From: an uncultured Candidatus Saccharibacteria bacterium
GTDB lineage: Bacteria > Patescibacteriota > UBA1384 > CAILIB01
Reading direction: 5' to 3'
Length of the DNA: 64,000 bases
Assembly (NCBI GenBank): GCA_964593885.1
Contig: CAZQKK010000002.1
Location: forward strand, 11,997-75,996
Shown: positions 3,101 to 51,108 of the stretch, piece after piece
Numbering within the stretch: the stretch's first letter is position 1
Layout: each line of letters starts with the position of its first letter
Made by a program: the position numbers and the translations under genes
Notes under the pieces: model-generated
Databases searched by the model: none
Seen by the model: only the letters and a program-made list of their open reading frames with translations
What the model was told of the DNA's origin: nothing

Positions 3101-3448
3101 ATGAAATCACTTCAAGATCTTCAGGATATGGTCGTTAAGCTTAGGGATGAGCGAGACTGGAAGCAATTCCATAACCCAAAGGACTTAGCCCTTACACTTA
3201 CCCTTGAAGCCACAGAAGTTTTGGAGCATTTTCAGTGGAAAACAAACGAAGAGTCTTTTGATCACATAAAAAAGAACAAACAAAAAGTTGCACACGAACT
3301 TGCTGACGTACTATATTCTGTTTTGCTCATGGCAAATGATTTTGATATTGATCTTGCAGAATCTTTCCTAGAGAAAATTGAAGAAATTTCAAAAAAGTAC
3401 CCTGTAGAGAAGTCAAGAGGAAATCATAAAAAATATACTGAGCTATGA
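3101..3448 (+). CDS. MazG-like nucleotide pyrophosphohydrolase (small all-alpha NTP-PPase)
   Basis: 115 aa with the EATEVLEHF and HELADVLY E-x-x-E/D helical motifs typical of the MazG/HisE superfamily. AT-rich relative to flanks. Its stop overlaps the next start (ATGA). Confidence 0.75.
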   Translation: MKSLQDLQDMVVKLRDERDWKQFHNPKDLALTLTLEATEVLEHFQWKTNEESFDHIKKNKQKVAHELADVLYSVLLMANDFDIDLAESFLEKIEEISKKYPVEKSRGNHKKYTEL

Positions 3449-5367
3449 TTGTTTATCAAGCTACAAAGCAATCTTTCCATCACGATATTCTCACTCACAG
3501 AATTGAGAAGATTGTTGCTAATGAGTTACTAAAAAAGACTGGAAAGCATGTGGGAGATGCAGAGGTGAGGTCATGGAAAGAATCGCTTGGCTACATGAGC
3601 AATGTGCTTTTGGATAACGATATTCCAAACGATGTTGGTATTGCCATTGAGTACCACATACCTCAAACCACCAAACGGATCGACTTTATTCTCACTGGTC
3701 AGAATGAGCATAATATTGACCATGCAATTCTTGTTGAGTTAAAGCAATGGTCGTCGGCAAAGCTGAGCGACCGAGATGGTGTGGTGTATACGTATGTTGG
3801 CGGAGGAGAGCGTGATATGAGCCACCCCTCATATCAGGCATGGTCATATGCTGCACTCCTTGAAGGATTTAATGAAACGGTTTACCAGGAAAACGTCCAG
3901 CTTAAGCCTTGTGCGTATTTGCACAACTATGAAGAGGATGAGGTTATCCGTAGTGATTTCTATCAAGAGTACCTAGATAAGGCACCGGCGTTTCTTGCTG
4001 GTGATGACGAGACAGAGAAGTTGAGAGATTTTATAAAAAGATACGTAAAGCGCGGGGATGTCTCGAATATTATGTATCGCATTGAGTGCGGTAGGATCCG
4101 CCCTTCAAAAGCTCTTGTGGATAGCCTTGTATCAATGCTTGATGGAAATGATGAGTTTGTCCTTGTTGATGATCAAAAGACAGTATTTGAGGAAGCAAGA
4201 TCACTAGTGCTTAATGCTTCAGATGATAATAAAAAAGTTCTCATTGTAGAGGGAGGGCCAGGAACAGGAAAAACACTTGTTGCTGTGAACCTTTTGGTAA
4301 AGGCCACAGCTGAAAACCTAGTTGCGCTTTATGTTACAAAAAACGCTGCGCCAAGAGCGGTCTATGAAAGCTTACTCACAAAGAGTCCCAGAAAAAGTGT
4401 ATACACATCTCTTTTCTCTGGCTCAGGTGCCTTTACCCAATCAAAGGAAAATGAGTTTGATGTCTTGATTGTTGATGAGGCGCACAGACTCAATGAAAAG
4501 TCTGGAATGTATAAGAACCTAGGTGAAAACCAGGTGAAAGAAATTATTACTGCTGCAAAATGTTCAATCTTCTTTATTGATGAAGATCAGCGTGTGACGT
4601 GGGGAGATATTGGAACAAAAGAAGAAATCATCAAATGGGCAAGGCAATGTGGAGCTGAGGTTGTCGAGAAAAACCTTTCATCACAGTTTAGGTGTAATGG
4701 TTCTGATGGTTACCTTGCATGGCTTGATGATGTTCTCCAAGTTAGAGAAACGGCAAACTACACTCTTGAAGAAGGTCAGTATGATTTTCAAGTTTTTTCA
4801 GACCCAAACGAACTTCGTAGAGCGATTCAACTTAATAATGTTGATAGAAATAAATCTCGTTTAGTTGCTGGCTACTGTTGGGAATGGGCAACTAAGTCTG
4901 GAAAAGCTGAATATGATGTCGTGTTGCCTGAGTATGATTTCAAAATGAAATGGAACCTTGCCAGTGACGGTAGTCTCTGGATAGTAGGAAAGAATTCAGT
5001 TAATGAAGTTGGCTGCATTCATACCTGCCAAGGTCTTGAGTTAGATTATGTAGGGGTGATTATTGGCGATGACTTTGTTGTGAGAGATGGTGAGGTTGTC
5101 ACAAATCCATCGGCTAGAGCACGTAGCGATAAATCACTTTCTGGATATGTGAAGGCCTCAAAGGATAGCCCAGAAGAATCATCTCAAAAAGCTGATCTTA
5201 TTATTAAGAATACCTACCGCACGCTCATGACGCGTGGGATGAAGGGTTGCTACGTTTACTGCACTGATAAAGAAACTGAAGATTACTTTAGAGAACGTCT
5301 CACACAGGTAGCTCATCTTTCTGGAAGCGAGATTGAAGGATTTGAAGATGAATTGGAGATTGCATAA
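3445..5367 (+). CDS. DUF2075 / Schlafen-group-3-like protein: N-terminal PD-(D/E)xK-like nuclease motif fused to SF1-type helicase ATPase
   Basis: N-terminus has IEYHIP...KRIDFIL...ILVELKQW (an E...D...ELK restriction-endonuclease-like signature). Walker A is GGPGTGKT. Walker B/DEAH-like is LIVDEAHRL. Motif VI-like is CIHTCQGLELDYVGVII. 640 aa, low GC. Confidence 0.8.
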   Translation: MIVYQATKQSFHHDILTHRIEKIVANELLKKTGKHVGDAEVRSWKESLGYMSNVLLDNDIPNDVGIAIEYHIPQTTKRIDFILTGQNEHNIDHAILVELKQWSSAKLSDRDGVVYTYVGGGERDMSHPSYQAWSYAALLEGFNETVYQENVQLKPCAYLHNYEEDEVIRSDFYQEYLDKAPAFLAGDDETEKLRDFIKRYVKRGDVSNIMYRIECGRIRPSKALVDSLVSMLDGNDEFVLVDDQKTVFEEARSLVLNASDDNKKVLIVEGGPGTGKTLVAVNLLVKATAENLVALYVTKNAAPRAVYESLLTKSPRKSVYTSLFSGSGAFTQSKENEFDVLIVDEAHRLNEKSGMYKNLGENQVKEIITAAKCSIFFIDEDQRVTWGDIGTKEEIIKWARQCGAEVVEKNLSSQFRCNGSDGYLAWLDDVLQVRETANYTLEEGQYDFQVFSDPNELRRAIQLNNVDRNKSRLVAGYCWEWATKSGKAEYDVVLPEYDFKMKWNLASDGSLWIVGKNSVNEVGCIHTCQGLELDYVGVIIGDDFVVRDGEVVTNPSARARSDKSLSGYVKASKDSPEESSQKADLIIKNTYRTLMTRGMKGCYVYCTDKETEDYFRERLTQVAHLSGSEIEGFEDELEIA

Positions 5368-5369
5368 CA

Positions 5370-5723
5370 ATGAATGCGAAACCATTACTCATAGCTGGTA
5401 GCGTCTCCCTTCTATCTGTAGCAGCTTTTGCCGCAGGTATGGAATCTCCAGAGGTTGCAGAAAGGTTGGGTAGTTCTCCGCAGATTACTTCAACAATTCC
5501 AGCTACTAACACACCAAAAGCGACTTCTGCTCCAACGCCTAAACCCACTGAGAGTAGCAAAGCTACTACATCAAATTGTGATTCGAACTACAGTCCCTGT
5601 ATTCCTAAGGTGAGTTATGACCTTGATTGTGGGGATATTGGAAAATTTGTGTACGTTATTGGTGTTGATGTACATGGATTTGACAGAGATGGGGATGGAG
5701 AAGGATGTGAGAGCTACAAATGA
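5370..5723 (+). CDS. secreted Excalibur (extracellular calcium-binding) domain protein
   Basis: N-terminal signal peptide, a Thr/Pro/Ser-rich linker, and a C-terminal DCGDIG...DRDGDGEGCE motif matching the Excalibur DxDxDGxxCE signature. Confidence 0.75.
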   Translation: MNAKPLLIAGSVSLLSVAAFAAGMESPEVAERLGSSPQITSTIPATNTPKATSAPTPKPTESSKATTSNCDSNYSPCIPKVSYDLDCGDIGKFVYVIGVDVHGFDRDGDGEGCESYK

Positions 5724-6049
5724 AATCCTTAAAATTCCAACCTCATCTAGCGCAGATGATTCGAGAGGGCAGAAAGACAACGACGTGGAGGCTCTTTGAT
5801 GACAAGGATCTCCAAGTTGGTGATGAGATTGAGTTGGTAGAAAAGGGTCAGAATGCGCCCTTCGCCCACACAACAATTACAAAGATGGTCTATAAGACAC
5901 TGGGCTCATTGCAAGATGAGGATTGGGTTGGGCATGAGAAATTTGCCTCAGAAGAAGAAATGTACGCAACATACCAAAATTACTACGGACCAAGTGTTGG
6001 TCCGGATATTGAAGTAAAGATTATCTGGTTTGGAACTATTGATTTGTGA
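5720..6049 (+). CDS. ASCH domain (PUA-like fold) protein
   Basis: 109 aa. The N-terminus KFQPHLAQMIREGRKTTTWRLFDD with a conserved GxKTxExR-type core is typical of ASCH. Start overlaps the previous stop (ATGA). Confidence 0.7.
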   Translation: MKSLKFQPHLAQMIREGRKTTTWRLFDDKDLQVGDEIELVEKGQNAPFAHTTITKMVYKTLGSLQDEDWVGHEKFASEEEMYATYQNYYGPSVGPDIEVKIIWFGTIDL

Positions 6050-13356: not shown

Positions 13357-14535
13357 ATGCAAATCCTTCGTACCATCACCCGTCGGCCTAGCCGTTCCAT
13401 CCTCACTGCCCTCGGCATTGCCATTGGTATCTTCGCCCTGGTAGTGGTTGGTGCACTTGCTGAGAGGGTGCAACAGATTGTCGGTGGAGGAGTCTCCTAC
13501 TACGGCACCAGGATTATCGTCCAGGATGCCGCAAACGATGGAAACTTCTTCAGGCTCACCAACCCCGTCAACCTAGACCGGCTTGAGCCGGTGCGCGCCC
13601 TAGATGGTGTTGAGGCCGCTTTCCCGGAAGTCACCATGCTCTACTCGGATGCTAAACGGGGCGAAAACTCCTTCGGTCAACCTCCCTTCATTATTGGGAG
13701 AGACCCAGAAGCTAACCAGAAAGACCCACAACCACTAAAAGTAAGGGCGGGACGAGGCCTCCAAAAAGGTGAGCGCTCAGTGGCGGTACTAGGGGAAGAC
13801 CTCCAGAAGCAGCTTGGCGCCAAGGTGGGCGAGAGCATCATCGCTAACGGTGCAACCTTCACCGTCATCGGGGTGTACGACAAGAACTTCACCATCAACG
13901 ACACCGCAGCCGTAGTTCCTCTCCTGGACGCTCAGCTCCTCACCCGCACTCCCATTACCAGCACCGGTGAGGTGAGCAAGCTTGGGGTAACTGAGGCTGC
14001 TTCCCAGATTGTGGTTTTCTCTAAACCAGGAGTTGATCCCCAGGTTCTCACCAAACAGATTACTGCAGGCGTTACTGGCGTGAAGGCGCTGGATCCTGAA
14101 TCGTTCAAGCGTCAGGTTGCTAACAGTACCCGCCTTTTCAATACCGTGGTTTTTGGCGCTGCCCTCATCGCCCTGCTCATTGGGAGCCTCTCTGTGGTGA
14201 ACACCATGGTCATGGCGGTGGCAGAGAGAACCCGCGAGATTGGGATTAGGAAGGCCATTGGTGCCACAGACGGCAGGATCCTTAGAGACTTCATTGGTGA
14301 AGCAGCGGTAATCGGTCTCCTTGGGGGACTACTGGGTATTTTCTTTGGTGAGCTCTTGGTGCTCTTCATCAACCGCTACACCGCCAGCAACGGCAGCGTC
14401 CTGTTCCAGGTGAGTCCGCGCTTACTCCTTGGCGCCTACTCATTCTCAGTGCTCCTTGCGGTAGTTGCTGGGCTCTGGCCGGCTTTCAAGGCCTCGCGCA
14501 TGCAGCCAATTGATGCCCTAAACCGGGAGCGCTAG
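13357..14535 (+). CDS. ABC transporter permease, FtsX/MacB-like (N-terminal TM, large extracytoplasmic domain, 3 C-terminal TMs)
   Basis: MacB-type topology. The C-terminal FtsX-like segment has a conserved RTREIGIRKAIGA motif. Confidence 0.85.
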   Translation: MQILRTITRRPSRSILTALGIAIGIFALVVVGALAERVQQIVGGGVSYYGTRIIVQDAANDGNFFRLTNPVNLDRLEPVRALDGVEAAFPEVTMLYSDAKRGENSFGQPPFIIGRDPEANQKDPQPLKVRAGRGLQKGERSVAVLGEDLQKQLGAKVGESIIANGATFTVIGVYDKNFTINDTAAVVPLLDAQLLTRTPITSTGEVSKLGVTEAASQIVVFSKPGVDPQVLTKQITAGVTGVKALDPESFKRQVANSTRLFNTVVFGAALIALLIGSLSVVNTMVMAVAERTREIGIRKAIGATDGRILRDFIGEAAVIGLLGGLLGIFFGELLVLFINRYTASNGSVLFQVSPRLLLGAYSFSVLLAVVAGLWPAFKASRMQPIDALNRER

Positions 14536-15230
14536 TGAAGAGTATCATCGCCCACAACCTGAAGAAGTACTACAACTCCGGCAAGCCAAATGAGGTGCGC
14601 GCCCTCCACAACGTCAGCTTAGAGGTAGGCGAAGGTGACTTGGTGGCAATTATCGGCCCATCTGGTTCCGGGAAATCCACCCTCATGCACATCTTGGGAA
14701 TCTTGGATCAGCCCCAGTCAGGCACCCTCACCGTGAGGGGAACTGAGGTTGCCAAGGTGCCTCGCAAAGCCCTCCCACGGATGCGCGCAAAAGAGATTGG
14801 CTTCATCTTCCAGGGCTTCAACCTCCTCCCAACCCAAACCGCCCTCGAGAACGTAACCGAGGCCGCCCACTACGGTGGCATGTCAGGACGAAAAGCTCGT
14901 GAGGCTGCCACCGAGGTACTTACCCAAGTAGGATTGGCTGACAGGCTGGATAACTTCCCCAACCAGCTCTCAGGTGGACAGCAGCAGCGCGTGGCAATTG
15001 CTCGGGCTCTGGTGAACAATCCGGCTATTATCCTTGGGGACGAACCCACCGGCGAGCTTGATAGTGGCAACGCCGACGCCATCATTGACCTCCTCATCAA
15101 GTTGAATAAAGAGCGAAAGCAAACCATCATCATCGTTACCCACAACCGCGAGATTGCCGAGCGGTGTCGCACCATTGTCACCATGCGCGATGGGGAAATT
15201 GCCAGTATCACCACCAAAAACCATGATTAA
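14535..15230 (+). CDS. ABC transporter ATP-binding protein (MacB/LolD-type)
   Basis: Walker [10 protein letters not shown], signature [15 protein letters not shown] and Walker [12 protein letters not shown]. Confidence 0.9.
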
Positions 15231-19358: not shown

Positions 19359-20039
19359 ATGCCAAAAACTATTATTGAACTGCGAGACGTCAGTAAGACG
19401 TACAAGCTGGGTGACGAGGTGGTGAATGCCCTCGATCACGTGGATTTTGAGGTTGAGGAGGGGGCTTTCATCGCAATCATGGGACCATCTGGCTCGGGTA
19501 AGTCTACCCTCGCCAACATTATTGGAGGATTAGACGCTCCAAGTGGTGGGAGTGTAATTGTTGATGGAGAAGATCTCTCCAAGGTGAGTGATGTCACACT
19601 CTCGGGCTACCGCAACAAGCACATTGGGTTCGTCTTCCAGTCATTCAACCTGCAGCCAAACTACACAGCGCTTGAGAACGTGATGCTCCCACTGGTTCTT
19701 GGAAAGATGGGAACTAAGGAGCGAAGCCAGCGCGCAGAAGCCTGTCTCAAGACAGTGGGACTAGAATCTCGGATGCGCCACGTGCCAACTCAGCTCTCTG
19801 GTGGGCAGCGTCAGCGTGTGGCAATTGCCAGGGCTCTCGCCAACAGCCCAAAGATTATCATCGCCGATGAGCCAACGGGGAACCTGGACTCGCAGAAAGG
19901 TGAGGAGATTATGGGAGTCCTCAAAGATCTCAACAAGCAGGGGATTACCCTCATCATCATCACCCACGATCCAAACGTCGCTAAGCACGCCCACCGGGTG
20001 CTCTCAATTACCGACGGCAAAATTCACGAACACCGATGA
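19359..20039 (+). CDS. ABC transporter ATP-binding protein (MacB-type)
   Basis: Walker [10 protein letters not shown], signature [15 protein letters not shown] and Walker B IIADEPTGNLD. Confidence 0.9.
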   Translation: MPKTIIELRDVSKTYKLGDEVVNALDHVDFEVEEGAFIAIMGPSGSGKSTLANIIGGLDAPSGGSVIVDGEDLSKVSDVTLSGYRNKHIGFVFQSFNLQPNYTALENVMLPLVLGKMGTKERSQRAEACLKTVGLESRMRHVPTQLSGGQRQRVAIARALANSPKIIIADEPTGNLDSQKGEEIMGVLKDLNKQGITLIIITHDPNVAKHAHRVLSITDGKIHEHR

Positions 20040-21454
20040 AACTCCTAGACTACTTCCGCTTCGGCCTCAAGAACATTTGGCGCCAGAAAGCCCGAACCAT
20101 TTTGACTATTTTCGCCATCATGATTGGTGCAACCTCGGTGGTTGCCATGCTTACCATTGTTGTAACTGCCAAGGCTTTGATTGTGGGGCAAATCCAGAGT
20201 GCAGGAGCCCTCACGCTCATTAGTATCTCGTCTAACACCGACATGCGAAGTGACGATCCTTTCAACACCTACGGGGGGAGCGATACCGGTGTGAAACTCC
20301 TAGATGAAACGGTGACCGAAATAAAGCAGATTCCCCACGTCAAATCGGCAGAGCCAATTTTGGGTGCTTGGCAGCTTCGCACCGCAAACATAGCTGGCAG
20401 CGAGAAGAAGGTTACCTTTGACCAGATTAGTGGAATCAACCCGGTACCTCAGAACGAGAAAGAGATGGCAGCGGGGAGAAACTTCACCAGTGCCGATACG
20501 AAGAGCGTGATTATTGGTGGAAGGTACCTTGAGAGCTTGGGGTACAAGGGTGATCCTTCAGGTATTATCGGCAAAACTCTGGTGTTCCAGGTAAAAGGGT
20601 ATACCGGCGAGGGGGCAGAGCCGCCAAAGCCAACCATGAGCGCGGATGGAAAGATGGGTGGGAATGATAAAGATAGCCAAGAGAAGGTGGTTACTCTTGA
20701 GGGAAAGGTGGTGGGGGTAATGGCATCATCGCTCTACGACAACCAGGTGTTCGTCCCAATGTCCTGGGCACGCCAGCTTCAGGTGAACAAGCGCTGGGAG
20801 TTCAAACAGGCGGCAAACCAAAATCAGAACCAAAACCAGAAGCAGGGACCAAGCCAGCCTTCTGGCGAGTTTGTTCTGGTTTCTGAGGATAACTTCCCGA
20901 GGATGGGGTACTCAGCTATCCAGGCCTACGCTGACGACACCACACAGGTTGCGGGTATCGCAGAAAAGGTGAAGGAGAAGAAGCTTGGAGCCGCAACGGC
21001 ACAGGAGATGATCGACCAAATCCAGAAGATGCTCAACCTCCTCGGGCTTGCACTCGGTGCTGTTGGCGCCATTTCGCTCAGTGTGGCAGCAATTGGGGTG
21101 ATCAACACCATGGTGATGGCTACGCTTGAGCGAACCCGCGAGATCGGCGTACTCCGCGCCTGTGGTGCAACCAGGTCTACGATTAGACGACTCTTCACCT
21201 TTGAGGCCTCGATGCTTGGGTTCTGGGGAGGGGTGTTTGGGGTGGGAGTAGCCTACGCGGTGGTGATGCTGGCGCGTATCTTTGGGACCAGTATCCTAGC
21301 TGAACAGGGATTGCAGGCTAGCCTCATTCAAATTCCAATCTGGCTTGCCCTCGCTACCATTGGGGTTACCACGGTGATTGGCACCCTCGCTGGCCTCCTG
21401 CCAGCCATCAGGGCTTCCAGGATGAACCCAGTAGAGGCGCTGCGGTACGAATAG
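20036..21454 (+). CDS. ABC transporter permease, FtsX/MacB-like with large extracytoplasmic domain containing NQ-repeat
   Basis: N-terminal TM, a roughly 300-aa external domain including NQNQNQNQKQG low complexity, and a C-terminal FtsX-like 3-TM segment with RTREIGVLRACGA. Confidence 0.85.
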   Translation: MKLLDYFRFGLKNIWRQKARTILTIFAIMIGATSVVAMLTIVVTAKALIVGQIQSAGALTLISISSNTDMRSDDPFNTYGGSDTGVKLLDETVTEIKQIPHVKSAEPILGAWQLRTANIAGSEKKVTFDQISGINPVPQNEKEMAAGRNFTSADTKSVIIGGRYLESLGYKGDPSGIIGKTLVFQVKGYTGEGAEPPKPTMSADGKMGGNDKDSQEKVVTLEGKVVGVMASSLYDNQVFVPMSWARQLQVNKRWEFKQAANQNQNQNQKQGPSQPSGEFVLVSEDNFPRMGYSAIQAYADDTTQVAGIAEKVKEKKLGAATAQEMIDQIQKMLNLLGLALGAVGAISLSVAAIGVINTMVMATLERTREIGVLRACGATRSTIRRLFTFEASMLGFWGGVFGVGVAYAVVMLARIFGTSILAEQGLQASLIQIPIWLALATIGVTTVIGTLAGLLPAIRASRMNPVEALRYE

Positions 21455-21989: not shown

Positions 21990-22910
21990 CTAGAGGGCAG
22001 CGTCTAGGAGACTGAGAGCTTGCTTGGGTAGCCCAAGGCTGGACATGTGGAAGGCGCCGTGTCCGCCGTTAAGATCAGTAACCGTACCAACTACATTAGC
22101 ACCATGTGAGGTAAGGAAGGTTGAGGTTTCGGCCATTCCGGGGCAGCCGTCTCGGTCTGGGTTATCATCCTTACCACCACAGGCGAGCACCCAAGGGATG
22201 TTCTTGAAGGCAGCGGTGATCTCGGCGTCTGTGGGAGTCTTCGAAGCGAGAGGAAAGTCTGACTGGTACTTTCCTGCATTTGAGATGACCGCGTCAAACA
22301 CCGGGGCTCCTTTCAGGTGGTCTTGGAAAATGACCGCGTAGGTGTTGGCACTCCCACGTGAGAAGCCGTGGAGGATTACCGTATCGCCAGATTTGTAGCC
22401 TTGCTGATTGAGGAAGGCTCTAGCCTGCATCACCACATCTGAAGGCTGGTAGTAGTTGGTGGTTTTTTCGCCACCACCATCCCACCAGTTGAACTCAGCG
22501 AGGGCAAAATCTCCTGACAGGTGGTTTTTCCACGCAACGTAGCCATCATCTGCGGTGGTGCCGTGACCAGGGAGCGAGATGATGATCTTCTTGGTGGTTT
22601 TGTTGTTCTGCCCAGCTGGTGCACCGTAGATGAAATAGGTTTTGCTATCGGCGCTGGTTACCTTTGTAGGGCTTGTGAGGGTATTAGCAGAGTCAGCGGC
22701 TTTGGTTGGCGTAGGAGTTGGACTTGGAGTAGGTGTTGGTGTGGGCGAAGGAGAAGCCTTGGCGGAAGGTGTTGAAGTAGCGGTTGGGGTGGGGGTGACT
22801 TCAGAAACTGCTTTTGGTGATCTCACCAGGAAGTAGGCTGCCGTTGCGAGAACTGCAACAATTGCAACGGCAATAGCGGCGGCACGGAGGGGTTGCGGGT
22901 GTGGTTCCAT
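21990..22910 (-). CDS. alpha/beta-hydrolase fold esterase (PHB depolymerase/feruloyl esterase-like) with N-terminal anchor and PT-rich linker
   Basis: N-terminal TM, a PTPTPTPSPTPTPT linker and a GFSRG nucleophile elbow (GxSxG). Confidence 0.7.
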   Translation of the reverse strand: MEPHPQPLRAAAIAVAIVAVLATAAYFLVRSPKAVSEVTPTPTATSTPSAKASPSPTPTPTPSPTPTPTKAADSANTLTSPTKVTSADSKTYFIYGAPAGQNNKTTKKIIISLPGHGTTADDGYVAWKNHLSGDFALAEFNWWDGGGEKTTNYYQPSDVVMQARAFLNQQGYKSGDTVILHGFSRGSANTYAVIFQDHLKGAPVFDAVISNAGKYQSDFPLASKTPTDAEITAAFKNIPWVLACGGKDDNPDRDGCPGMAETSTFLTSHGANVVGTVTDLNGGHGAFHMSSLGLPKQALSLLDAAL

Positions 22911-23005: not shown

Positions 23006-23539
23006 ATGCAGTATGTAGCCCTCCTTCGCGGTATCAATGTTGGTGGCAACGCAAAGGTCTCCATGGCGCTCTTGAAGCAAACCTTTGAGAGGGTTGGCTT
23101 TACCGATGTCAAAACCTACATCAACTCAGGGAATGTCATCTTTTCATCTCCTGAAAGTGCTGCAAGTGAAATGTGTGAAACTATTGAATCAGCCATCGCT
23201 TCAGATTTTGGTTTCAAGGTACCTGTGGTTGTGAGGAGCGTTACTTCGCTCCAAGAGATTGTCACTAAAACTCCAGAAACGTGGCAGAACAACAGTGAGA
23301 TGAAAACCGATGTGATGTTCCTCTGGGAGGCAGTTGATGCACCGGCAGTCTTGGAACAGCTGAGAATATCTCCTGGTATGGATGAGGTGGTGTACCTGCC
23401 TGGTGCCGTGGTTTGGCGGGTGAACCGAGAACACCAGAGTAAGAGCGGGATGCTGGATATTGTAGGAACCAAGCTTTACAAACAGATGACGGTGAGGAAC
23501 ATCAATACGGTGAGGAAGCTTGTTGAGCTGATGGCGTAG
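23006..23539 (+). CDS. DUF1697 family protein
   Basis: MQYVALLRGINVGGNAKVSMALLKQTF is the hallmark DUF1697 N-terminus. Confidence 0.7.
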   Translation: MQYVALLRGINVGGNAKVSMALLKQTFERVGFTDVKTYINSGNVIFSSPESAASEMCETIESAIASDFGFKVPVVVRSVTSLQEIVTKTPETWQNNSEMKTDVMFLWEAVDAPAVLEQLRISPGMDEVVYLPGAVVWRVNREHQSKSGMLDIVGTKLYKQMTVRNINTVRKLVELMA

Positions 23540-23578: not shown

Positions 23579-24451
23579 ATGGCTTTCACAGGAGGACCTT
23601 TACTTATTGCAGAACCATGGTGCCTCACTCTGAAAGGAGAGTGGCAAGCATGGCAGGAAACATTACCGGGAGACATTTCCCGGGTACACAGCATGGCGCC
23701 CATGCTCGCTACGGCGAGTGAAGCGCTACAGCACTGGAACACGCCAGATAACGTGCAGTTCAGGGCAATTGTCTTTGAGTGCATGCGCGCGTTCAGCTTC
23801 GACAACTATGAAGAAGCAATACTCGCCACCGACGGCACCCACTGGCCGATCTGGGAGATTGGCATGGATACCTGGCTTGGGAAGCGGATGGCATCAACCA
23901 TCTTTGCTCTCCGACAGGTTAGGAAAATGCTCACTGCCGGGAAACTAGTACAGCCTCTCGAAGAAGATGAAGTAGCCGCAGAGGTGCTCACCCTAGAGCA
24001 GGGAGTGCGAGATGACTACGCCAGCTTGCTTGGAGAAGACTACCGCGATAGCCGCAACCTTCCCACACTGCTCAATGGCATCATTGAGGTGTGCGAAGCT
24101 TCCATGCTTCCCTGCAGTGTGAAGTACATGCACCTGCTCCTCGGTCAGGTGAGGCAGCACAGCAAGTGGGGCAAATCAACGCTTGAGGATCATGCGTACG
24201 TACCAGCGGGTACCTTCGCCAAGCTTTTCCACCCGCTCAACCTTGAGCGTTGGGATAGGGGTGAGGAAGGCTTTGACCTCGCCGATAGATTTATCTACGG
24301 CGTGGTAGAGCGAACCCTTGAGGGCGCTGGAAAGCACCTCGTGGAGTGCCACAGGGTTGTGTCGGAAATGGCTGATGACGACTATCCCTTCTGCTCAGCA
24401 GTTGTGGTGAGGGAAGCACTTGCTGAAGTGCTCTCTCCCAAGTTCAGATGA
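23579..24451 (+). CDS. hypothetical protein
   Basis: 290-aa ORF with no recognisable domain, followed by a strong terminator. Confidence 0.5.
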   Translation: MAFTGGPLLIAEPWCLTLKGEWQAWQETLPGDISRVHSMAPMLATASEALQHWNTPDNVQFRAIVFECMRAFSFDNYEEAILATDGTHWPIWEIGMDTWLGKRMASTIFALRQVRKMLTAGKLVQPLEEDEVAAEVLTLEQGVRDDYASLLGEDYRDSRNLPTLLNGIIEVCEASMLPCSVKYMHLLLGQVRQHSKWGKSTLEDHAYVPAGTFAKLFHPLNLERWDRGEEGFDLADRFIYGVVERTLEGAGKHLVECHRVVSEMADDDYPFCSAVVVREALAEVLSPKFR

Positions 24452-24457
24452 TTCTCA

Positions 24458-24486
24458 AACCACCTTCACCGAGGGTGGTTTTTTCT
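24458..24486 (+). terminator. rho-independent terminator (AACCACCTTCACCGAGGGTGGTT + TTTTCT)
   Basis: Perfect 8-bp stem and a T-run. The T-run overlaps the stop of the convergent heliorhodopsin gene. Confidence 0.7.
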
Positions 24487-25241
24487 TACGGCCTCAATGT
24501 GCCGGCGAATACCTGCCAAGCCAAGAGTGACTTCGCTACTAAGCTCAAGATGATGTACGCGCGCTCACCGTAGAGGTAGTCCTTCCACTTGCCAACCTTC
24601 TTGTACTGGAGCCACATGTTGATAGCGAAGGTGTTAAAGAAGATGAAGATTGAGACAAAGATCCAGTAGACAAAGGTAGGGGCACTACTGCCGTTAGCCG
24701 ATCCTGTCCAGAGGTAGAGGGCAACCACCACCCATGGAAGGGCACCGAGAATGCAGCCAATCCAGTACGAGAGCCAGTCGGTGGTCTTGGTGGTCTGGTT
24801 GTGTACCTCCATCACGAGACCCATGAGGTTCATACCTGCGGTGAGGCCAAATATCATGATAAGGCTGCTCACATCGTAGATGCCTACCAGGAGCGAGATA
24901 GCCACCATCATCACACTTGCCGACAGGGAGTACTCAAACCAGCGCGCCTTGTTCATCCCTTTTGCAAGGTTTGCCTCGTAGGTTTTGCGGTAAGTTGTTG
25001 CAATCACCAGGTGGAAGATTGCTGACAAGCAGAAGAAACCTGCAATGAGGGTTGGGAGTGACAGGTTGAAGGCAGCTGCTGTAGCGGGCTCAAGCGTCTG
25101 GCTACTCGGGTTGAACTTCAGGAAGCTGTTGGTGAGGGGGAGCGAAAAACTCTTACTGAGGGCAATGACTGCCAAGCCTTGGAGGGCGTGGAGCAAGCTC
25201 ATCACCAAGTTGAAGTTCTTGAGTTTAGTAAACTTATCCAT
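24486..25241 (-). CDS. heliorhodopsin (7-TM retinal-binding protein with inverted topology)
   Basis: 251 aa. Blocks RWFEYSLSASVMMVAISLL, IFGLTAG and YLYGERAYIILSLVAKSLLAWQVFAGTLRP align closely to the reference heliorhodopsin 48C12 (RWVEYSLSSSVMIVLIAQI...YLRGERAYIVLSLVAKSALAWQIFSGTLIP). The Schiff-base Lys (SLVAKS) is present in TM7. Confidence 0.85.
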   Translation of the reverse strand: MDKFTKLKNFNLVMSLLHALQGLAVIALSKSFSLPLTNSFLKFNPSSQTLEPATAAAFNLSLPTLIAGFFCLSAIFHLVIATTYRKTYEANLAKGMNKARWFEYSLSASVMMVAISLLVGIYDVSSLIMIFGLTAGMNLMGLVMEVHNQTTKTTDWLSYWIGCILGALPWVVVALYLWTGSANGSSAPTFVYWIFVSIFIFFNTFAINMWLQYKKVGKWKDYLYGERAYIILSLVAKSLLAWQVFAGTLRP

Positions 25242-25308
25242 CTGGTTTGTTATGGGTTGCTACATCTAGTCTATGCTGACCGCCCAAGAATATCTATACT
25301 TTGGCGTA

Positions 25309-26300
25309 TGAAGCGTCGCAGCTACCTCCGCGTCATCCTGCCAGTTGTCGGCATAGTGAGTCTCCTTGTAGTTGGCTTTGTGGCAGGGAGGTACCTACCC
25401 ACAAACCTAGTTACACAGAGTGGCCTTACCTGCCAGCGTGAAGCGGGGTATGATCTGATCAATCCTCTCCTCTTTTGTGATCCTGTAGCTGAGGCTGATG
25501 CAAAGCGTTTTGCGAAGCTGAGTACAGAACTCTCAACCTACATTTCAGAGCAGGTTGAGAAGAAAGATGTTGATCAAGTTTCAGTCTTTGTGAGAGATAT
25601 TACCCAACGTGAGGAGTTTGGGATTGGCTCTGATCAGAAGTACTTTCCGGCAAGTCTCGGTAAGCTTCCGGTAATGGTTGCGGTGTACAAGCAAGCAGAG
25701 CGTGATCCTGCATTCCTCAATAGTATCGCCAAGGTAGAACCGACAGACTACAACACTGGGGTTGAGATCCTTCCTTCTGATCCTGTTGCCCCAGGCAGCT
25801 CACATACCGTCAAAACACTCCTTGAAAGTATGATTAAACAGTCGGACAATAACGCTTTCTACGCGCTTGCAAGGGTGATTAGCGAAGATGATTACTATGG
25901 TCTCTTCAGTACCCTAAAGCTACCGTTATCAGATGACAGGAATGCACTAGCTGACATTATTTCGTCACGTGAAGTTTTCAACTACTTCAGGGTGCTCTAC
26001 AATGCCACGTACCTTGAGCGAAGGTTTTCAAAGGAGGCTCTCAGTATGCTCACCGAAACCAACTACAAGCAGGGTCTTGTCGCAACCATACCTGGTGAGG
26101 TGAAGGTATCTCACAAGTTTGCCGTCCATACCCTCAAGCAGGATGAGAAGCTGGTTCAACGTCAGCTCCACGACTGCGGTATCGTGTATAAAGGGGACCA
26201 CCCCTACTTCATATGTGTCATGACGAAGAGTAGTGGGGAGCTTACAGCTGCCGAGGGGGTGATCCAAGAAATTTCTAAGCGGGTATATGAGCAAATCTAG
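25309..26300 (+). CDS. class A beta-lactamase-fold serine hydrolase (membrane anchored)
   Basis: N-terminal TM, an S-x-x-K element (PASLGK) and an SDN loop (SDNNAFYAL). Tracked start 25179 overlaps the divergent heliorhodopsin gene, so the ATG at 25309 is preferred. Confidence 0.65.
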
Positions 26301-26907
26301 TTCGCACCAGGTTACTATCCACAAAGACCTACCTGTCTACAGGTTTCCAAGACCCTCTGATTTTGAGGCCTGGCTTGCTGCCAATTCCGAAAATCCTCAG
26401 GCAATTTGGCTGCAGTTTGCAAAAAAGGTATCCTCGCACACTACCATTACCTACATTGAGGCACGTGATGTAGCCCTCTGTTTTGGTTGGATAGATAGCG
26501 TCATCAACGCGTATGATGCCGATTTCTACCTCACCAAGTTTACCCAGCGTCGCAAGAAGAGCATCTGGTCTCAGGTGAACGTGGGGGTGGTTGGGAGACT
26601 CATCTCAGAAGGGAAAATGAGGCCGCGAGGATTACAGGAAGTGGAGGCAGCCAAAGCTGATGGGAGGTGGGAACAAGCGTATGCACCCCAATCAAGTGCT
26701 GCTATTCCAGATGACCTCCAAACAGCAATTGATGCATCGCCGAAAGCGAAAGCATTCTTTGAGACGCTCACTGGTGCTTCACGCTACGCCCTGTTCTTCA
26801 GAATGAACCACCTCAAAGACCCAGTTAAGCGGGAAGAGAAGATCTCACAGTTTGTTGTAATGCTCGAAAGGGGAGAAGCTCCCCACCTCATAGCTCCTAA
26901 AAAGTAG
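26287..26907 (+). CDS. YdeI/OmpD-associated family protein (DUF1801-related)
   Basis: WLAANSENPQAIWLQFAKK...ARDVALCFGWIDS resembles the YdeI bacteriocin-protection family. Overlaps the upstream stop by 14 nt. Confidence 0.6.
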   Translation: MSKSSSHQVTIHKDLPVYRFPRPSDFEAWLAANSENPQAIWLQFAKKVSSHTTITYIEARDVALCFGWIDSVINAYDADFYLTKFTQRRKKSIWSQVNVGVVGRLISEGKMRPRGLQEVEAAKADGRWEQAYAPQSSAAIPDDLQTAIDASPKAKAFFETLTGASRYALFFRMNHLKDPVKREEKISQFVVMLERGEAPHLIAPKK

Positions 26908-40222: not shown

Positions 40223-40993
40223 TTAGGCTTCGCCCCAGCCCAGCTCAATGGCGGCGAGTGATGATGTGTAGCCGGAGATGAGGCAGAAGAAGTCGGTTAT
40301 GTCACCGTTCCAGTAGCTCCCAATGTTGTGTCGGTAGAGGAAGAGAACAAGTGCCACCGCTAGGAACCCGAGGGAGAGGAAGTAGAGCTTTAGTGATTTT
40401 GCTGAGGTACCTCCACTTGAGCGTGAGGCAATCATTACCAGTGACATCAGGGCACAGGCAATCACCGGGTAGACAATGGTGAAGAACCTGACAATAGGAT
40501 CTGAGGTAAACCTGAGAGATGGAATAATGAAGAAGACAAATACGAGGATGAAACCAAGCGTCGCAACACCCACAGACTGAAAGACAATTCTCCTGGTGAG
40601 GGTAGGACCTAGGAGCTCTAGGATGGCAACGCACGCTACACCAACCGAGATAGTGTAGAGGGTGAAGAATACATCAGCACTTGAGGGGAAGGGAGTGGAG
40701 ATACCCTTCACGATGCCAGAGTACGCCCAGATGTAGAGAGCAATAGCAAACGAGAGTGACCCCAGCGAGAAGAGCCAGAGTGCCTTTCCTTGAGCTCCGC
40801 TGATGTAGCGTCTCTTGTGGGCGATAAACCCAAGGAGGGCACTTGCCACAAATACTGATGCATACCCGGCGTTAAACCACGAGTTAACTACCTCATGCTT
40901 TGTTCCACTTGCGTACAGCGTTAACTGCCAGAGAAGGAGCAGTCCAGTGAGGACTGACATGAGTATTCTCAGGGTGTGAGCGACGCGGTGCAT
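40223..40993 (-). CDS. polytopic membrane protein (about 7 TM), possible sensory/transport module
   Basis: 256 aa with 7 hydrophobic segments. Divergently oriented to the histidine kinase gene. Confidence 0.5.
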   Translation of the reverse strand: MHRVAHTLRILMSVLTGLLLLWQLTLYASGTKHEVVNSWFNAGYASVFVASALLGFIAHKRRYISGAQGKALWLFSLGSLSFAIALYIWAYSGIVKGISTPFPSSADVFFTLYTISVGVACVAILELLGPTLTRRIVFQSVGVATLGFILVFVFFIIPSLRFTSDPIVRFFTIVYPVIACALMSLVMIASRSSGGTSAKSLKLYFLSLGFLAVALVLFLYRHNIGSYWNGDITDFFCLISGYTSSLAAIELGWGEA

Positions 40994-41031: not shown

Positions 41032-42513
41032 ATGGGTCTCTTCACCATCTTTCGCAAGCCACAACCCGAGGCCAGTCCTTCAGCCCTTGCTGTTGAGCGG
41101 GTAATTGGGTTCCTTTTCTCGTGTTTCGTCAACCAGGAACCGGTGAGAGAGCCGCTCCATAGGTTCCTCGAGCTGCAAGCAGGAGCAAACACCGCAGATA
41201 GGCTCCTGGAGTACCTCAACCTCTACACCACAGTTGAACGGGTGCTCGTCAGCCAGCAGCCACCAGTGGTGGAGCGAAACTACACTCGGGAAGAGATTAG
41301 ACACGAGATTATCACAAGATTTTCGCCAGAGCAGCTACCCCCAACTTTCGCCGTCATTTTTCTCACTCCAAAAGGGCAGTACCGCTACTTGGGAGAGCTT
41401 GCGGTAACCACCTACAGTAACTACCTCACCCACGCCTTTGGGGTGGCAAAGCTGAGGTTGATGATTGACGCCCATCCCCTCAACCACCCGATGCGAAGCC
41501 TCAAAGTGTCTGATAGTGGCCAGCTAGACTGGACGGTGGCGGGGAAGTTTTTGGACGAGCTACCTGAAGAGCAGGTGGTGGAGGCACTTTCAGAAACTAT
41601 CACGAAACTCCACGATGAGCTGGTTACCCACTTTGGTGAGCACACCGCTGATGACCTGGTAGGCAAGCTCTACCTTCCAATCAAGCACTCCTACGACTTT
41701 GATGTGGTAAACCGCATGCTTGCTCTTCTCCCTGCCACGGTGCTAGAAGATGAGAGGCTCACCTTCCTCAGTAGGGAAGAGCTTGAGAAACGGCTGACAG
41801 ATGCCCGTAATGCCGAGAGATCACGTGAGGAGTTCTTCTCCATTGCCTCACACGAGCTGAGGACTCCACTTACCGCTATTAGGGGGTACTCAGAGCTCCT
41901 AGAGCAGATGTACGTGCCAACGGTGAACGACCCCCAGTTCACCAAGTTTGTCCTTGCCATCCACGACAGTAGCAAACGGCTGATTGAGATTGTGAATGAC
42001 TTCCTCAACATGTCCAGCCTCGAGCAGGGGAAGATTTCCTTTGATAACCAGCCGCTCGTGCTCACCAACCTTCTCAACGAGGTGAGCGATGACGTAGCTT
42101 CGGTTGCCTCGCAGCGTGGAATTACCTTAACCCGGGACTACGTTGATTCGCCCTACGAGGTTACCGCAGATGCCAACCGCCTCAAGCAGGTACTCATTAA
42201 CCTCCTGGGCAATGCCATCAAGTTCAGTGATGAGGGAGCAGTTTCCATTGGTATTCGTTTGCTGCCATCGGACATTGAAATCACCATCACCGATACAGGC
42301 AAAGGCATTAGCCCAGAAAACCAGCACCTCCTCTTCAGGAAGTTCCAGCAGGCAGGGGACAGCATCCTCACCCGCGATGCTTCTAGGGGTACCGGCCTTG
42401 GCCTCTACATCTCCAAGCTGATCATGGAGGGTTTGCATGGGAGCATTTACCTGAAAGAATCAGTGGTGGGTGAGGGGAGTACTTTCGCCCTCTCGCTGCC
42501 TAGAACGAAGTAA
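41032..42513 (+). CDS. sensor histidine kinase (cytoplasmic; HisKA + HATPase_c)
   Basis: H-box SHELRTPLTAIRGY, N-box LLGNAIKFS, and G-boxes DTGKGI and GTGLGL. No TM segments in the 230-aa N-terminal region. Confidence 0.85.
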   Translation: MGLFTIFRKPQPEASPSALAVERVIGFLFSCFVNQEPVREPLHRFLELQAGANTADRLLEYLNLYTTVERVLVSQQPPVVERNYTREEIRHEIITRFSPEQLPPTFAVIFLTPKGQYRYLGELAVTTYSNYLTHAFGVAKLRLMIDAHPLNHPMRSLKVSDSGQLDWTVAGKFLDELPEEQVVEALSETITKLHDELVTHFGEHTADDLVGKLYLPIKHSYDFDVVNRMLALLPATVLEDERLTFLSREELEKRLTDARNAERSREEFFSIASHELRTPLTAIRGYSELLEQMYVPTVNDPQFTKFVLAIHDSSKRLIEIVNDFLNMSSLEQGKISFDNQPLVLTNLLNEVSDDVASVASQRGITLTRDYVDSPYEVTADANRLKQVLINLLGNAIKFSDEGAVSIGIRLLPSDIEITITDTGKGISPENQHLLFRKFQQAGDSILTRDASRGTGLGLYISKLIMEGLHGSIYLKESVVGEGSTFALSLPRTK

Positions 42514-46817: not shown

Positions 46818-47381
46818 ATGGAAGATCAAATCAAGCTGGTAGTGCTGCTCGGTACCGTGAGAGCAGAGAGACTCAGTGAGCGAGCTCTCAAGTTTGTGCA
46901 ACGTGAAATGGGCGAAAAGTACCCCCAGGTCTCGCTGCAGGTGTTTGACGTCAGAAACCTCTCCATGCCAATGGATGATGATGGACCAGATATCGGCGAT
47001 GCAAACCCGGAGTACAAGCAAGCGGTGCAAGGTATGGATGCCCTCCTCGTAGTTTCGCCAGAGTACAACCACAGTTTCCCGGGAACCCTCAAGCGAGCCC
47101 TAGACATGCTCAACATTTCAGACTGCCTTCATAAGGCGGTGGGGGTGGTTGGGGTGTCTAACGGGATGTTTGGCGGGGGAAGGATGGCAGAGTCACTCTT
47201 GCCGGTTTTCCGTACCCTAGGTCTGGTCTCAATTAAGCCTGATCACTACTTTCCCAAAGCCCAGGAAGCCCTCACCGAGGATGGTGTAGCACTCCAGCCA
47301 ATCTCAGTGGAGAGCTTCGCGAGGTTCATGGATGAGCTACTCTGGATGGCAAACGTGTTGCGAGAGGGTCGAAGAAAATAA
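46818..47381 (+). CDS. NADPH-dependent FMN reductase family protein
   Basis: LLGTVRAERLS...LLVVSPEYNHSFPGTLKRALD matches NADPH-dependent FMN reductase blocks. Confidence 0.8.
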   Translation: MEDQIKLVVLLGTVRAERLSERALKFVQREMGEKYPQVSLQVFDVRNLSMPMDDDGPDIGDANPEYKQAVQGMDALLVVSPEYNHSFPGTLKRALDMLNISDCLHKAVGVVGVSNGMFGGGRMAESLLPVFRTLGLVSIKPDHYFPKAQEALTEDGVALQPISVESFARFMDELLWMANVLREGRRK

Positions 47382-47406
47382 AAAAACCACCCGGGTGGGG
47401 TGGTTA
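47378..47406 (-). terminator. hairpin terminator (AACCACCCGGGTGGGGTGGTT) flanked by A-run/T-run, likely bidirectional
   Basis: The minus strand gives stem + TTTTTTTATTTT. It sits between convergent genes. Confidence 0.65.
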
Positions 47407-47994
47407 GAGAGATCGTTCTCCGGGTCTGTAGATGGTAGCGAGGCACTGGAGTTGCTTTGAGGAGTCCTTTCCAATGAGGAGGATCTCTTCGTTGAAAGGA
47501 GTCCCGCTCTCAAGGAAGCACTCGAGAGGAATGTAGACTTTTTCACCATCTCTAGAGGTAGCTAGGACGTAGATAGTCTGCTCCTTGCCGTTACGCGTGG
47601 CTAGTAGGCGTGAAACTAGTTCAGCTTTATGTAGCCATGCTTTCTGGGGTTGGAATACTTCGGGCAATACAATTATTTCTGCGAGTAGTGTCAGGAAAAA
47701 TAGTATAAGGATGATGGTGGCCATAAGATAGCTCATCCCAAAATATTTCCAGACCTCTGCTGAGATCGTCATGAAGACGGCAAAGATGAGTATGGCTGTG
47801 CTAACCATGAAGATTTGGTGTGTGCACACTACCATCCGCCCCACTGGGTCCTCTCGGAACTCCACACTTGGAATGTAGACCCTAGGATCCACCTTTGTTT
47901 CCTGACTAGTATTCTGTTCTGTCAAATACGTTTCCGATACCGTGCGTACTACGCACGTTGCCGGCAGAGTACCAAAAAACAGCCAAAAAGGCAA
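47404..47994 (-). CDS. hypothetical membrane protein (2-3 TM) with C-terminal soluble domain
   Basis: 196-aa ORF with no recognised motif. Confidence 0.5.
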   Translation of the reverse strand: MPFWLFFGTLPATCVVRTVSETYLTEQNTSQETKVDPRVYIPSVEFREDPVGRMVVCTHQIFMVSTAILIFAVFMTISAEVWKYFGMSYLMATIILILFFLTLLAEIIVLPEVFQPQKAWLHKAELVSRLLATRNGKEQTIYVLATSRDGEKVYIPLECFLESGTPFNEEILLIGKDSSKQLQCLATIYRPGERSL

Positions 47995-48016
47995 TGAGAT
48001 TAACCCTGTTGTAAGC

Positions 48017-49207
48017 TTACGCCCTACCCTCTAGGTAGTGCCTGACCATCATGGCGGCGGTAGCTCCTTCGCCTACAGCTGCTGCAACCTGCATGGTGGC
48101 GCCGGCACGGCAGTCTCCGGCGGCAAACACACCAGGAATGGTGGTTTGGAGGGTCTTGTCTGTCTCAATGAAACCAGCCTTGTTTCTGGTGATGGTTTCA
48201 GGAAGCCAGCTGGTTTGGGGGGTGAGGCCAACAAAAACAAAAACACCTTCGCCACTTACGGTTGTAATTTCACCAGTATCGCGGTGCTCCATCCGGATGC
48301 CGGTAACGCGGTCATCCTCAGAGGTGATTTCTAGGGTTTTCTGGTTGAAGTAGCTGGTAACCTTATTGCCAATCTTCTTGAGTTTTGCCTGGAGGGTTTG
48401 GCTAGCGCTGAAGATTGGCTCAAAGCTCACAATGTGGACGTGTGAGGCAAACTGGGTGAGGAAGAGAGATTCTTGGAGTGCCGAGTTTCCTCCTCCAATC
48501 ACGATAACTTCCTTGCCACGGTAGAAAGGTCCGTCGCAGGTGGCACAGTTGTGAACACCTCTCCCGCTAAACTCAGCTTCCCCAGGAACGTTGAGCTGAC
48601 GGTACTTGGTCCCAAGGGCGAGGATTACAGACTTTGCCCTAACTTCGCCACTGCTCGTGGTGATGCCAATGTAGCCTGGAGTTTCCTGGTGGATGGTGGT
48701 TACCTCTTCACCAGCCTTAATATCGGTACCAAACTTCATCGCTTGGTTTCCCATGTGCTGCATGAGCTCAAACCCAGAGATGGGTTCCTCAAAGCCAGGG
48801 TAGTTCTCAATGGCCGAGGTAATAATCGCTTGTCCGCCAACTCCAACCTTGTCAAAGACAACCGTTTTGAGCTGCTCTCGTGAGCAGTAGATGGCGGCAG
48901 TGAGTCCCGCTGGACCAGCTCCAATGATGGCAACATCGCAGGTTTTGGCATCAGTAGGAGCATCCTGGTCTCCAAGGGCGGCGGTGAGAACCTCGGTGCT
49001 TGGACAGATGAGTACTTCACCGTTAGCTAGAATGACTACAGGAATCTCATCGCTCCCGCCTGCGCTTACTGAGGCTTCTGAGAGGTGCTTCTCGCTAGCA
49101 TCAACGTTAACAAACTTGTAATCAAGGTGCTGAGACGAGAGGTAGTCGGTAACCCTCGTGCAGTCTGGGCACCATCGCGCCCCGTAGACGATGATGGGAT
49201 CAGCCAT
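48017..49207 (-). CDS. trxB: thioredoxin-disulfide reductase with N-terminal glutaredoxin/NrdH-like CPDC domain fusion
   Basis: N-terminal 85 aa: IIVYGARWCPDCTRVTDYL. Then a FAD-binding GAGPAGLTAA motif, the redox-active CATCDG and NADPH-binding GGGNSA, as in TrxR. Confidence 0.85.
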   Translation of the reverse strand: MADPIIVYGARWCPDCTRVTDYLSSQHLDYKFVNVDASEKHLSEASVSAGGSDEIPVVILANGEVLICPSTEVLTAALGDQDAPTDAKTCDVAIIGAGPAGLTAAIYCSREQLKTVVFDKVGVGGQAIITSAIENYPGFEEPISGFELMQHMGNQAMKFGTDIKAGEEVTTIHQETPGYIGITTSSGEVRAKSVILALGTKYRQLNVPGEAEFSGRGVHNCATCDGPFYRGKEVIVIGGGNSALQESLFLTQFASHVHIVSFEPIFSASQTLQAKLKKIGNKVTSYFNQKTLEITSEDDRVTGIRMEHRDTGEITTVSGEGVFVFVGLTPQTSWLPETITRNKAGFIETDKTLQTTIPGVFAAGDCRAGATMQVAAAVGEGATAAMMVRHYLEGRA

Positions 49208-49216
49208 GGTGTGAAC

Positions 49217-49861
49217 TTAGGCTTCTGGATTTGCTTCCTTGGCAGCTTTGAGAGCTCTTTTCTTTGCTTTCTTTTTCGCACCCGCATAGCCGAGTGCTGC
49301 TGGGCTTAGGCTCACCAAAATGATGAAAGCGATGACGGGGAGAATGAACTTATCGATGTTTGGGATGGTCCTACCCAGGAAGAACCCAAGGGACAGCATA
49401 CCGGCAATCCAGCCAATGCCTCCCATGGTGTTGTAGAGTGCAAAGGTTTTGTAATTCATCTTTGAGACGCCTGCTAGCATTGGGGCGAAGCTACGCACGA
49501 CGGGCGTAAACCTTGCGAGAATAATGGTTTTGACCCCGTGCTCCTCATAGAATGCCTCAGCCTTTTTGAGCTGCTCAAGGTTGAAGAACTTTCGTTTGGG
49601 ATCAGGCGTGAATAGTTTTGGCCCCAGCTTGTAGCCAATTCTGTAGCCAACAGCATCTCCACTAACTGCGGCGATAATACCCACAACAATCAAGATGGGT
49701 AGGCTGAGCTTACCTTGGGAGGCAAACAGTCCGAGGGTGAAGAGGAGTGAGTCACCAGGGAGGAAGAAGCCAATGAGGAGGCCGCTCTCAGCAAAGATGA
49801 TGGCAAAGAACGCCACGTAGGCGAGGGTGAGACCGAGGGTGAGGAGCCAGTTTTCAATCAT
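49217..49861 (-). CDS. DedA/SNARE-associated family membrane protein
   Basis: FFLPGDSLLF...AFYEEHGVKTIILARFTPVVRSFAPMLAG are the typical DedA blocks. Confidence 0.8.
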   Translation of the reverse strand: MIENWLLTLGLTLAYVAFFAIIFAESGLLIGFFLPGDSLLFTLGLFASQGKLSLPILIVVGIIAAVSGDAVGYRIGYKLGPKLFTPDPKRKFFNLEQLKKAEAFYEEHGVKTIILARFTPVVRSFAPMLAGVSKMNYKTFALYNTMGGIGWIAGMLSLGFFLGRTIPNIDKFILPVIAFIILVSLSPAALGYAGAKKKAKKRALKAAKEANPEA

Positions 49862-49869
49862 GGAGGTGG

Positions 49870-51039: not shown

Positions 51040-51078
51040 GGTGCATGCAGGCGTTAGTGGTGCTCAAATGAGTATACC

Positions 51079-51108
51079 AAAAAAGACCGCCGGAGCGGTC
51101 TCTTTTGC
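51079..51108 (-). terminator. hairpin terminator (AGACCGC-CGGA-GCGGTCT) with flanking A/T runs
   Basis: The minus strand gives stem + TTTTTTGG, downstream of the RRM protein gene. Confidence 0.65.

Follow-up and report, generated by a model that had tools for sequence, protein, structure and literature searches.

What does a heliorhodopsin (HeR) do in a bacterium that apparently makes no retinal of its own, and do the genes around it say anything about its output? This question is raised by one gene in a 64,000-nt stretch of DNA from an uncultured Candidatus Saccharibacteria bacterium (hereafter the window, meaning the whole of the DNA analyzed). For most lineages, the function of heliorhodopsins has yet to be settled, and Saccharibacteria offer an attractive case owing to tiny genomes, the lack of chromophore synthesis, and an episymbiotic lifestyle. 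The presence of the family in this group has been documented by Chiriac et al. (2022), who screened 1,326 CPR genomes, reported 80 heliorhodopsins in Saccharimonadia, listed SLVAK as one of the most frequent TM7 motifs, and considered a role in oxidative-stress sensing (PMC9166423).

The first-pass annotation of this DNA had called a heliorhodopsin gene at 24486-25241, and the call is borne out by the ORF list, a full-length Pfam match, and matches in the PDB (Table 1). Specifically, the sole Pfam family matched by the window HeR was PF18761 Heliorhodopsin (330.2 bits against a cut-off of 26.7; E = 8.4e-99), with profile positions 1-242 of 242 spanned, and PF01036 Bac_rhodopsin, the type-1 family, gave no match at E ≤ 0.01. 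A phmmer search of all PDB chains returned six matches, heliorhodopsins without exception, the best being TaHeR (6is6; E = 6e-78) followed by 48C12 (6su3; E = 7e-64). The block alignment to 48C12 described earlier also stands, both in SLVAKS and in the segment YLYGERAYI...LAWQVF, which reads YLRGERAYI...LAWQIF in 48C12. More than 7,400 homologues were scored; among the matches listed (n = 120), identity to the window HeR ranged from 69% to 96%, and NCBI already holds a protein that is 100% identical to it (P0243).

Table 1. Coordinates of the HeR gene, its key codons, its flanking DNA, and its neighbors in the window
Feature	Position	Strand	Basis or remark
Heliorhodopsin (HeR) CDS	24486..25241	-	ATG start, 251 aa, TAA stop; ORF list
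K237, retinal Schiff-base lysine, TM7 SLVAK	24531..24533 (AAG codon)	-	= 48C12 K241, TaHeR K238
E103, single Schiff-base counterion, TM3 RWFEYS	24933..24935 (GAG codon)	-	= 48C12 E107, TaHeR E108
Hairpin with an 11-bp stem, between the stops at which HeR and the 290-aa gene converge	24457..24481	.	terminator-like site
HeR/Beta-lactamase2 divergent intergenic region, presumed promoter region for both	25242..25307	.	conservation; promoter role presumed
DUF1697 protein	23006-23539	+	Pfam
290-aa protein, no Pfam match	23579-24451	+	
Beta-lactamase2-domain protein	listed 25179, probable start 25308, to 26300	+	Pfam
OmdA/YdeI-like protein	26287-26907	+	Pfam

A scan for relatives that took one genome per GTDB species yielded 142 loci. 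The best 80 of these 142 belong overwhelmingly to Candidatus Saccharibacteria/Saccharimonadales MAGs, with HeRs 53-74% identical to that of the window, and the remainder among the best 80 consists of a few other Patescibacteria and some Thermoplasmatales. Two HeR paralogues (L025 and L035) lie ~54 kb apart on one Saccharimonadales contig (DASTXH010000031.1). Saccharibacteria-like HeRs (56-59% identity) were also found in MAGs labelled "uncultured Gammaproteobacteria bacterium" (L052, L057, and L076), with the HeR of L076 sitting on a 179-kb contig; either these MAGs were binned or labelled wrongly, or they break the rule that confines heliorhodopsins to monoderms.

Residue correspondence between the window HeR and 48C12 or TaHeR was rebuilt from HMMER alignments, and the TaHeR residue identities printed in the literature match the numbering used, which validates the offset. 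Positions H23, S76, H80, N101, R104, E107, E149, Y226, E230, S237, K241, and W246 of 48C12 are all conserved in the window HeR, as H18, S73, H77, N97, R100, E103, E145, Y222, E226, S233, K237, and W242, respectively. The histidine pair near the Schiff-base network (48C12 H23/H80) is among them (H18/H77), and the Schiff-base lysine, the absence of which had been named as an argument against a heliorhodopsin, is in place on proper alignment. It closes an SxxxK motif in TM7, S233-L-V-A-K237, whose serine corresponds to S237 of 48C12 and S234 of TaHeR. The motif described for the lateral fenestration and carotenoid site, namely aromatics at 48C12 positions 162 and 206, small residues at 166 and 210, G169, and N207 (preprint 10.1101/2025.11.27.691015), is complete in the window HeR, where it reads Y159, F202, C163, A206, G166, and N203. 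In an alignment of 35 relatives, K237, E103, H18, S233, and most pocket positions were invariant. The window HeR thus has the full set of residues required to form a protonated retinal Schiff base with one glutamate as its counterion.

An AlphaFold2 model of the window HeR, built with 35 relatives, has a mean pLDDT of 83 and contains seven helices, with a beta-hairpin between helices 1 and 2 (strands 33-44 and 49-61; block pLDDT ~87-92). Seven helices and a beta-hairpin in this position are the heliorhodopsin arrangement. One of the five models exceeded a pLDDT of 70, and the other four scored poorly; superposition of the HeR model on HeR crystal structures gave TM-scores of 0.51-0.57 at an RMSD of ~17 Å. 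Since this makes it a moderately good model, we relied on it for secondary structure and the class of fold and not for pocket geometry. A Foldseek search of the PDB with the model produced ten significant matches, all of them heliorhodopsins (E from 5.5e-20 to 1.5e-13), and type-1 rhodopsin structures appeared only at E-values of at least 0.06. With the hydrophobic cores of the helices taken from the model, the window HeR carries 14 lysines and arginines on its N-terminal side versus 3 on the opposite side, an imbalance that by the positive-inside rule points to a cytoplasmic N-terminus. The predicted topology is therefore N-in, with an extracellular C-terminus, and not the N-out arrangement that the first-pass annotation would have taken as evidence against a heliorhodopsin. 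The missing PF01036 match, SxxxK instead of DxxxK in TM7, and the predicted N-in orientation all speak against a type-1 microbial rhodopsin. Judged from its sequence, the window HeR is almost certainly an intact, bona fide heliorhodopsin.

The closest relative (P0001) has a HeR protein 96% identical to that of the window, encoded on contigs L081-L084, which are collinear with the window at ~79% nucleotide identity. Comparison of the HeR gene with its L081 orthologue gave dN = 0.032 and dS = 0.91, i.e., a dN/dS of 0.035, which is among the lowest four values of 14 collinear genes (range, 0.029-0.25) and comparable to those of a DEAD-box helicase and a Band 7 protein. A ratio this low indicates strong purifying selection and, thus, a functional gene and not a relic.

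By its layout, the gene is transcribed alone. A divergent Beta-lactamase2 gene lies upstream across a gap of 66 bp, and the 290-aa gene converges on HeR from downstream; the stop codons of these convergent genes lie 34 bp apart (24452-24485), and the interval contains a hairpin that is probably a shared bidirectional terminator. This combination of divergent and convergent flanks with a terminator hairpin argues for a monocistronic HeR. The start listed for the Beta-lactamase2 gene, a TTG, would make it overlap HeR; the 331-aa orthologue in L081 and a conserved ATG place the probable start at 25308. Compared with L081, the divergent intergenic region is 89% identical over 111 aligned bp, against a background of ~79%, and includes two invariant blocks, ACGCCAAAGTATAGATATTCTT and AGCATAGACTAG. 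It is better conserved than the coding DNA on its flanks, which suggests a shared regulatory element; no site passed in a scan of this region with the sigma-70 consensus.

At its 3′ end, the HeR locus differs even from that of its closest relative. In L081 (10771-11799), as well as in L082-L084, a gene for a 342-aa class I methyltransferase (Methyltransf_11) is inserted between HeR and the same terminator hairpin, at a distance of 14 bp from the HeR stop codon, so that the homologous hairpin of L081 follows the HeR-methyltransferase pair; on these contigs, the two genes form an apparent operon. With and without the methyltransferase, the loci differ by a clean indel of 1.04 kb at the 3′ end of HeR. 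The enzyme is missing from the whole window (tblastn; best E = 2.3), and its absence rules it out as an obligate HeR partner. The surroundings of HeR turn over quickly, as a hotspot of gene gain and loss, around a HeR protein that stays nearly unchanged.

Pfam confirmed the identities previously assigned to the four nearest neighbors, i.e., a DUF1697 protein, a beta-lactamase-fold protein, a YdeI-like protein, and a 290-aa protein of unknown family, the last of which has no Pfam match. These neighbors had also been put forward for co-evolution or pull-down experiments, and for that purpose they are poor candidates. When 20 flanking proteins were compared with 84 related loci by tblastn, the window neighbors recurred solely in the four contigs with the 96%-identical HeR protein; near the HeR genes of the 80 species-level loci, none of the 19 tested neighbors was found, apart from generic ABC ATPases. 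With recurrence limited to four near-identical contigs, the window neighbors were rejected as HeR partners. In de novo clustering of all ORFs, each family located within four genes of HeR was limited to 8 or fewer of the 85 loci, so that no general partner stood out, the commonest being an unannotated 263-aa family, an ABC ATPase, and a histidine kinase/response regulator (HK/RR) pair. Since the neighbors are not conserved with HeR, they offer no clue to its signaling output. Nor did Pfam place next to the window HeR any of the partner families of Cho et al. (2024), which comprise glutamine synthetase (GS), NAD synthetase, photolyase, MerR, TerC, ABC transporter, SDR, alpha/beta hydrolase, DUF2177, and DUF2238.

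Several other features of the window deserve a brief record. A MacB-type ABC ATPase and permease pair at 19359-21454 is not at that position in L081, which marks it as an insertion, and a second MacB pair is found at 13357-15230. An orphan neighbor protein (21990-22910) shares 72% identity with a protein from a Saccharimonadales contig, and other window proteins have moderate matches (25-54%) within the HeR-relative loci. Together with the relatives of HeR, these matches give good support, short of proof, to a Saccharimonadales (CPR) host. A low-GC patch at 3101-6049 (GC of 0.42 at 4001-6000 vs ~0.53 elsewhere in the window) encodes a MazG-like protein, a 640-aa Schlafen-group-3 helicase (357 bits), a small protein, and an ASCH-domain protein, and looks like a horizontally acquired island, possibly related to defense. 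Redox genes occupy 46818-52298, 22-27 kb from HeR and not linked to it; they include an FMN reductase, a glutaredoxin-thioredoxin-reductase fusion (48017-49207), and an AhpC/TSA peroxiredoxin (51831-52298), with a protein carrying two RRM_1 domains among them (51120-51716). Thematically, these genes fit the oxidative-stress hypothesis for HeRs. Scans of the window for tRNAs and Rfam families found nothing relevant.

One pattern among the related loci concerns histidine kinases. Co-directional histidine kinase-HeR arrays with gaps of 10-60 bp occur at L056:4643-7179, L058:7674-10771, L060:8331-10753, L062:8879-10750, and L064:4665-7201, all within a sub-clade of Saccharibacteria HeRs 57-59% identical to the window HeR. 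At four of these five loci, the kinase is immediately preceded by an OmpR-type response regulator, and one extra ORF separates kinase and HeR at L058. A response regulator-histidine kinase pair also lies a few genes downstream of HeR at L018 and L048. The arrays are the only neighborhood pattern that we regard as suggestive, and they agree with the findings of Bulzu et al. (2021; PMC8612252). The window itself encodes a HisKA/HATPase_c kinase (41032-42513, + strand), divergently paired with a 256-aa multi-pass membrane protein without a Pfam match (40223-40993, - strand). As an orthologue of the HeR-linked kinases, this kinase is ruled out, for its catalytic core alone matches them, at 25-29% identity.

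As for the source of the chromophore, none of the 72 window ORFs of at least 80 aa gave a Pfam match to Blh/BCD, phytoene synthase, phytoene desaturase, lycopene cyclase, or type-1 rhodopsin, in agreement with the earlier remark that retinal-synthesis genes (blh/crt) are absent from the window. In rhodopsin-bearing Saccharibacteria, blh is missing, as documented by Jaffe et al. (2022), and actinobacterial hosts are the probable source of their retinal; TaHeR, whose source organism likewise has no retinal pathway, takes up external retinal quickly through its fenestration (PMC9296517). As neither the window nor the published Saccharibacteria genomes contain a retinal pathway, we infer that the window HeR scavenges its retinal. 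An extension of this idea is that HeR is functional only on or near a host that produces retinal or xanthophylls (e.g., an actinobacterium) and, therefore, acts as a sensor of "host present and daylight" that gates attachment, division, or stress responses. This reading draws on the apparent inability of the organism to make retinal or carotenoids and on the retention of an outward-facing fenestration, and we consider it improbable; if true, HeR would sense the symbiotic state and not light alone.

Taken together, these results make it probable that the window HeR is a TaHeR-like, non-transporting heliorhodopsin that binds scavenged retinal and through which light regulates an unlinked partner by contact. 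By analogy with characterized family members, a sensory or regulatory mechanism fed by scavenged retinal is reasonably likely in general terms, and its most likely form would be a light sensor with a slow photocycle and an unlinked partner. In such a mechanism, all-trans retinal from other organisms would enter the apoprotein through the fenestration, and light would isomerize it on the K237 Schiff base. The Schiff-base proton would then pass into a hydrogen-bond network on the cytoplasmic side without crossing the membrane, giving rise to a long-lived intermediate that alters the cytoplasmic loops. These loops, in turn, may modulate by direct contact a partner protein encoded elsewhere in the genome. 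The step of partner regulation is modeled on AbHeR, TfHeR, and OcHeR.

Signaling through a histidine kinase and a response regulator would follow the precedent of the kinase-HeR arrays in L056, L058, L060, L062, and L064 and of the downstream pairs in L018 and L048, and it would accord with a statistical enrichment that includes Patescibacteria (Bulzu et al., PMC8612252). The arrangement is, however, confined to ~8% of related loci, and the one histidine kinase encoded in the window lies 16 kb from HeR, with none within 15 kb; a Pfam search of the window ORFs also found no response-regulator domain, and we regard this route as unlikely for the window HeR. Even less probable is a light-regulated module with a neighbor, be it the Beta-lactamase2 protein, the 290-aa protein, the DUF1697 protein, or the MacB-type ABC transporter. 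Here, the well-conserved HeR/Beta-lactamase2 intergenic region (89% vs ~79% background) and the MacB pair 3 kb from HeR, an ABC transporter being a demonstrated actinobacterial HeR partner (PMC11109279), have to be set against the absence of all candidates from the vicinity of HeR in the 80 species-level relatives. Just four contigs with a 96%-identical HeR retain them, each family within four genes on either side is limited to at most 8 of 85 loci, the MacB pair represents an insertion relative to the closest relative, and HeR shares an operon with none of the candidates.

HeR could, alternatively, use light to drive or gate proton transport, as the viral V2HeR3 does, and supplement the energy of a fermentative episymbiont, given that proton transport has been shown for some (viral) heliorhodopsins (PMC9448325), that Saccharibacteria use type-1 rhodopsin pumps (PMC9296517), and that the conserved E226 of the window HeR is the counterpart of V2HeR3 E215. 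What makes this very unlikely is the absence of the TM6 hallmark of V2HeR3, E191/W195 (PMC9448325), in place of which the window HeR has I198/F202, as TaHeR has I199/F203. The window HeR also has Q212 where V2HeR3 has E205, again like the non-transporting TaHeR, for which, as cited in PMC9448325, no ion transport was detected and which is 53% identical to the window HeR. Moreover, the mainly viral HeR subfamily that includes ion transporters is reported to be without the fenestration motif (preprint 10.1101/2025.11.27.691015) that the window HeR possesses. As for a non-functional relic, that is, an apoprotein never given its chromophore by an organism unable to make retinal, the lack of a retinal pathway in the window and in published Saccharibacteria (PMC9296517) would fit. 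Such a relic is scarcely credible for a gene with an intact reading frame, all functional residues, the retinal-uptake fenestration motif, and thousands of close homologues, constrained like a DEAD-box helicase (dN/dS of 0.035 at a dS of ~0.9). A TaHeR-like, non-transporting heliorhodopsin with an unlinked partner, thus, remains our preferred reading.

The first-pass annotation had described the signaling output of heliorhodopsins as unknown, which is now dated, for partners have been reported and proton transport is known from viral members (PMC9448325). The partner is glutamine synthetase for AbHeR (PMC9529153), photolyase for TfHeR (PMC9769723), and the OmrDE ABC transporter for OcHeR of an actinobacterium (PMC11109279). 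These proteins and the window HeR belong to the same family and presumably have in common a light-dependent protein-protein regulation via cytoplasmic loops. The operon-linked HeRs of Cho et al. share an operon with their partner, whereas the window HeR is monocistronic and has no conserved neighbor; in this, it resembles the 61% of helR genes that stand alone (PMC11109279). With the Saccharimonadia heliorhodopsins surveyed previously (PMC9166423), it has lineage, the call of an inverted topology, and the SLVAK motif in common, and there is no substantive difference other than that the survey did not dissect individual loci. Published work already covers the HeR family, its presence in Saccharibacteria, the SLVAK motif, and the lack of blh, and the locus departs from this picture in nothing: it has no fused domain, operon partner, conserved neighbor, or unusual residue and so provides no new handle on HeR function.

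Among heliorhodopsins of known structure, 48C12, from an actinobacterial fosmid (6su3/6uh3), is 45% identical to the window HeR and differs from it by several short loop indels. Its Q213 is replaced by M209 in the window HeR, as in TaHeR, and the pocket-neighboring positions 142 and 146 (I and W in 48C12) are N138 and L142. Closer is TaHeR of the Thermoplasmatales archaeon SG8-52-1 (6is6/7u55), which is 53% identical across its full length, with a single indel of four residues, and whose E108, Y164, I199, F203, N204, A207, Q213, E227, S234, and K238 all recur unchanged in the window HeR. The host of TaHeR is archaeal and that of the window HeR bacterial (CPR), and ~47% of the residues differ; the two nevertheless share their length class, the TM1-TM2 beta-hairpin, and a likely need for retinal from outside. 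The window HeR, therefore, offers a clean, strongly constrained, TaHeR-like representative of the CPR heliorhodopsins for expression.
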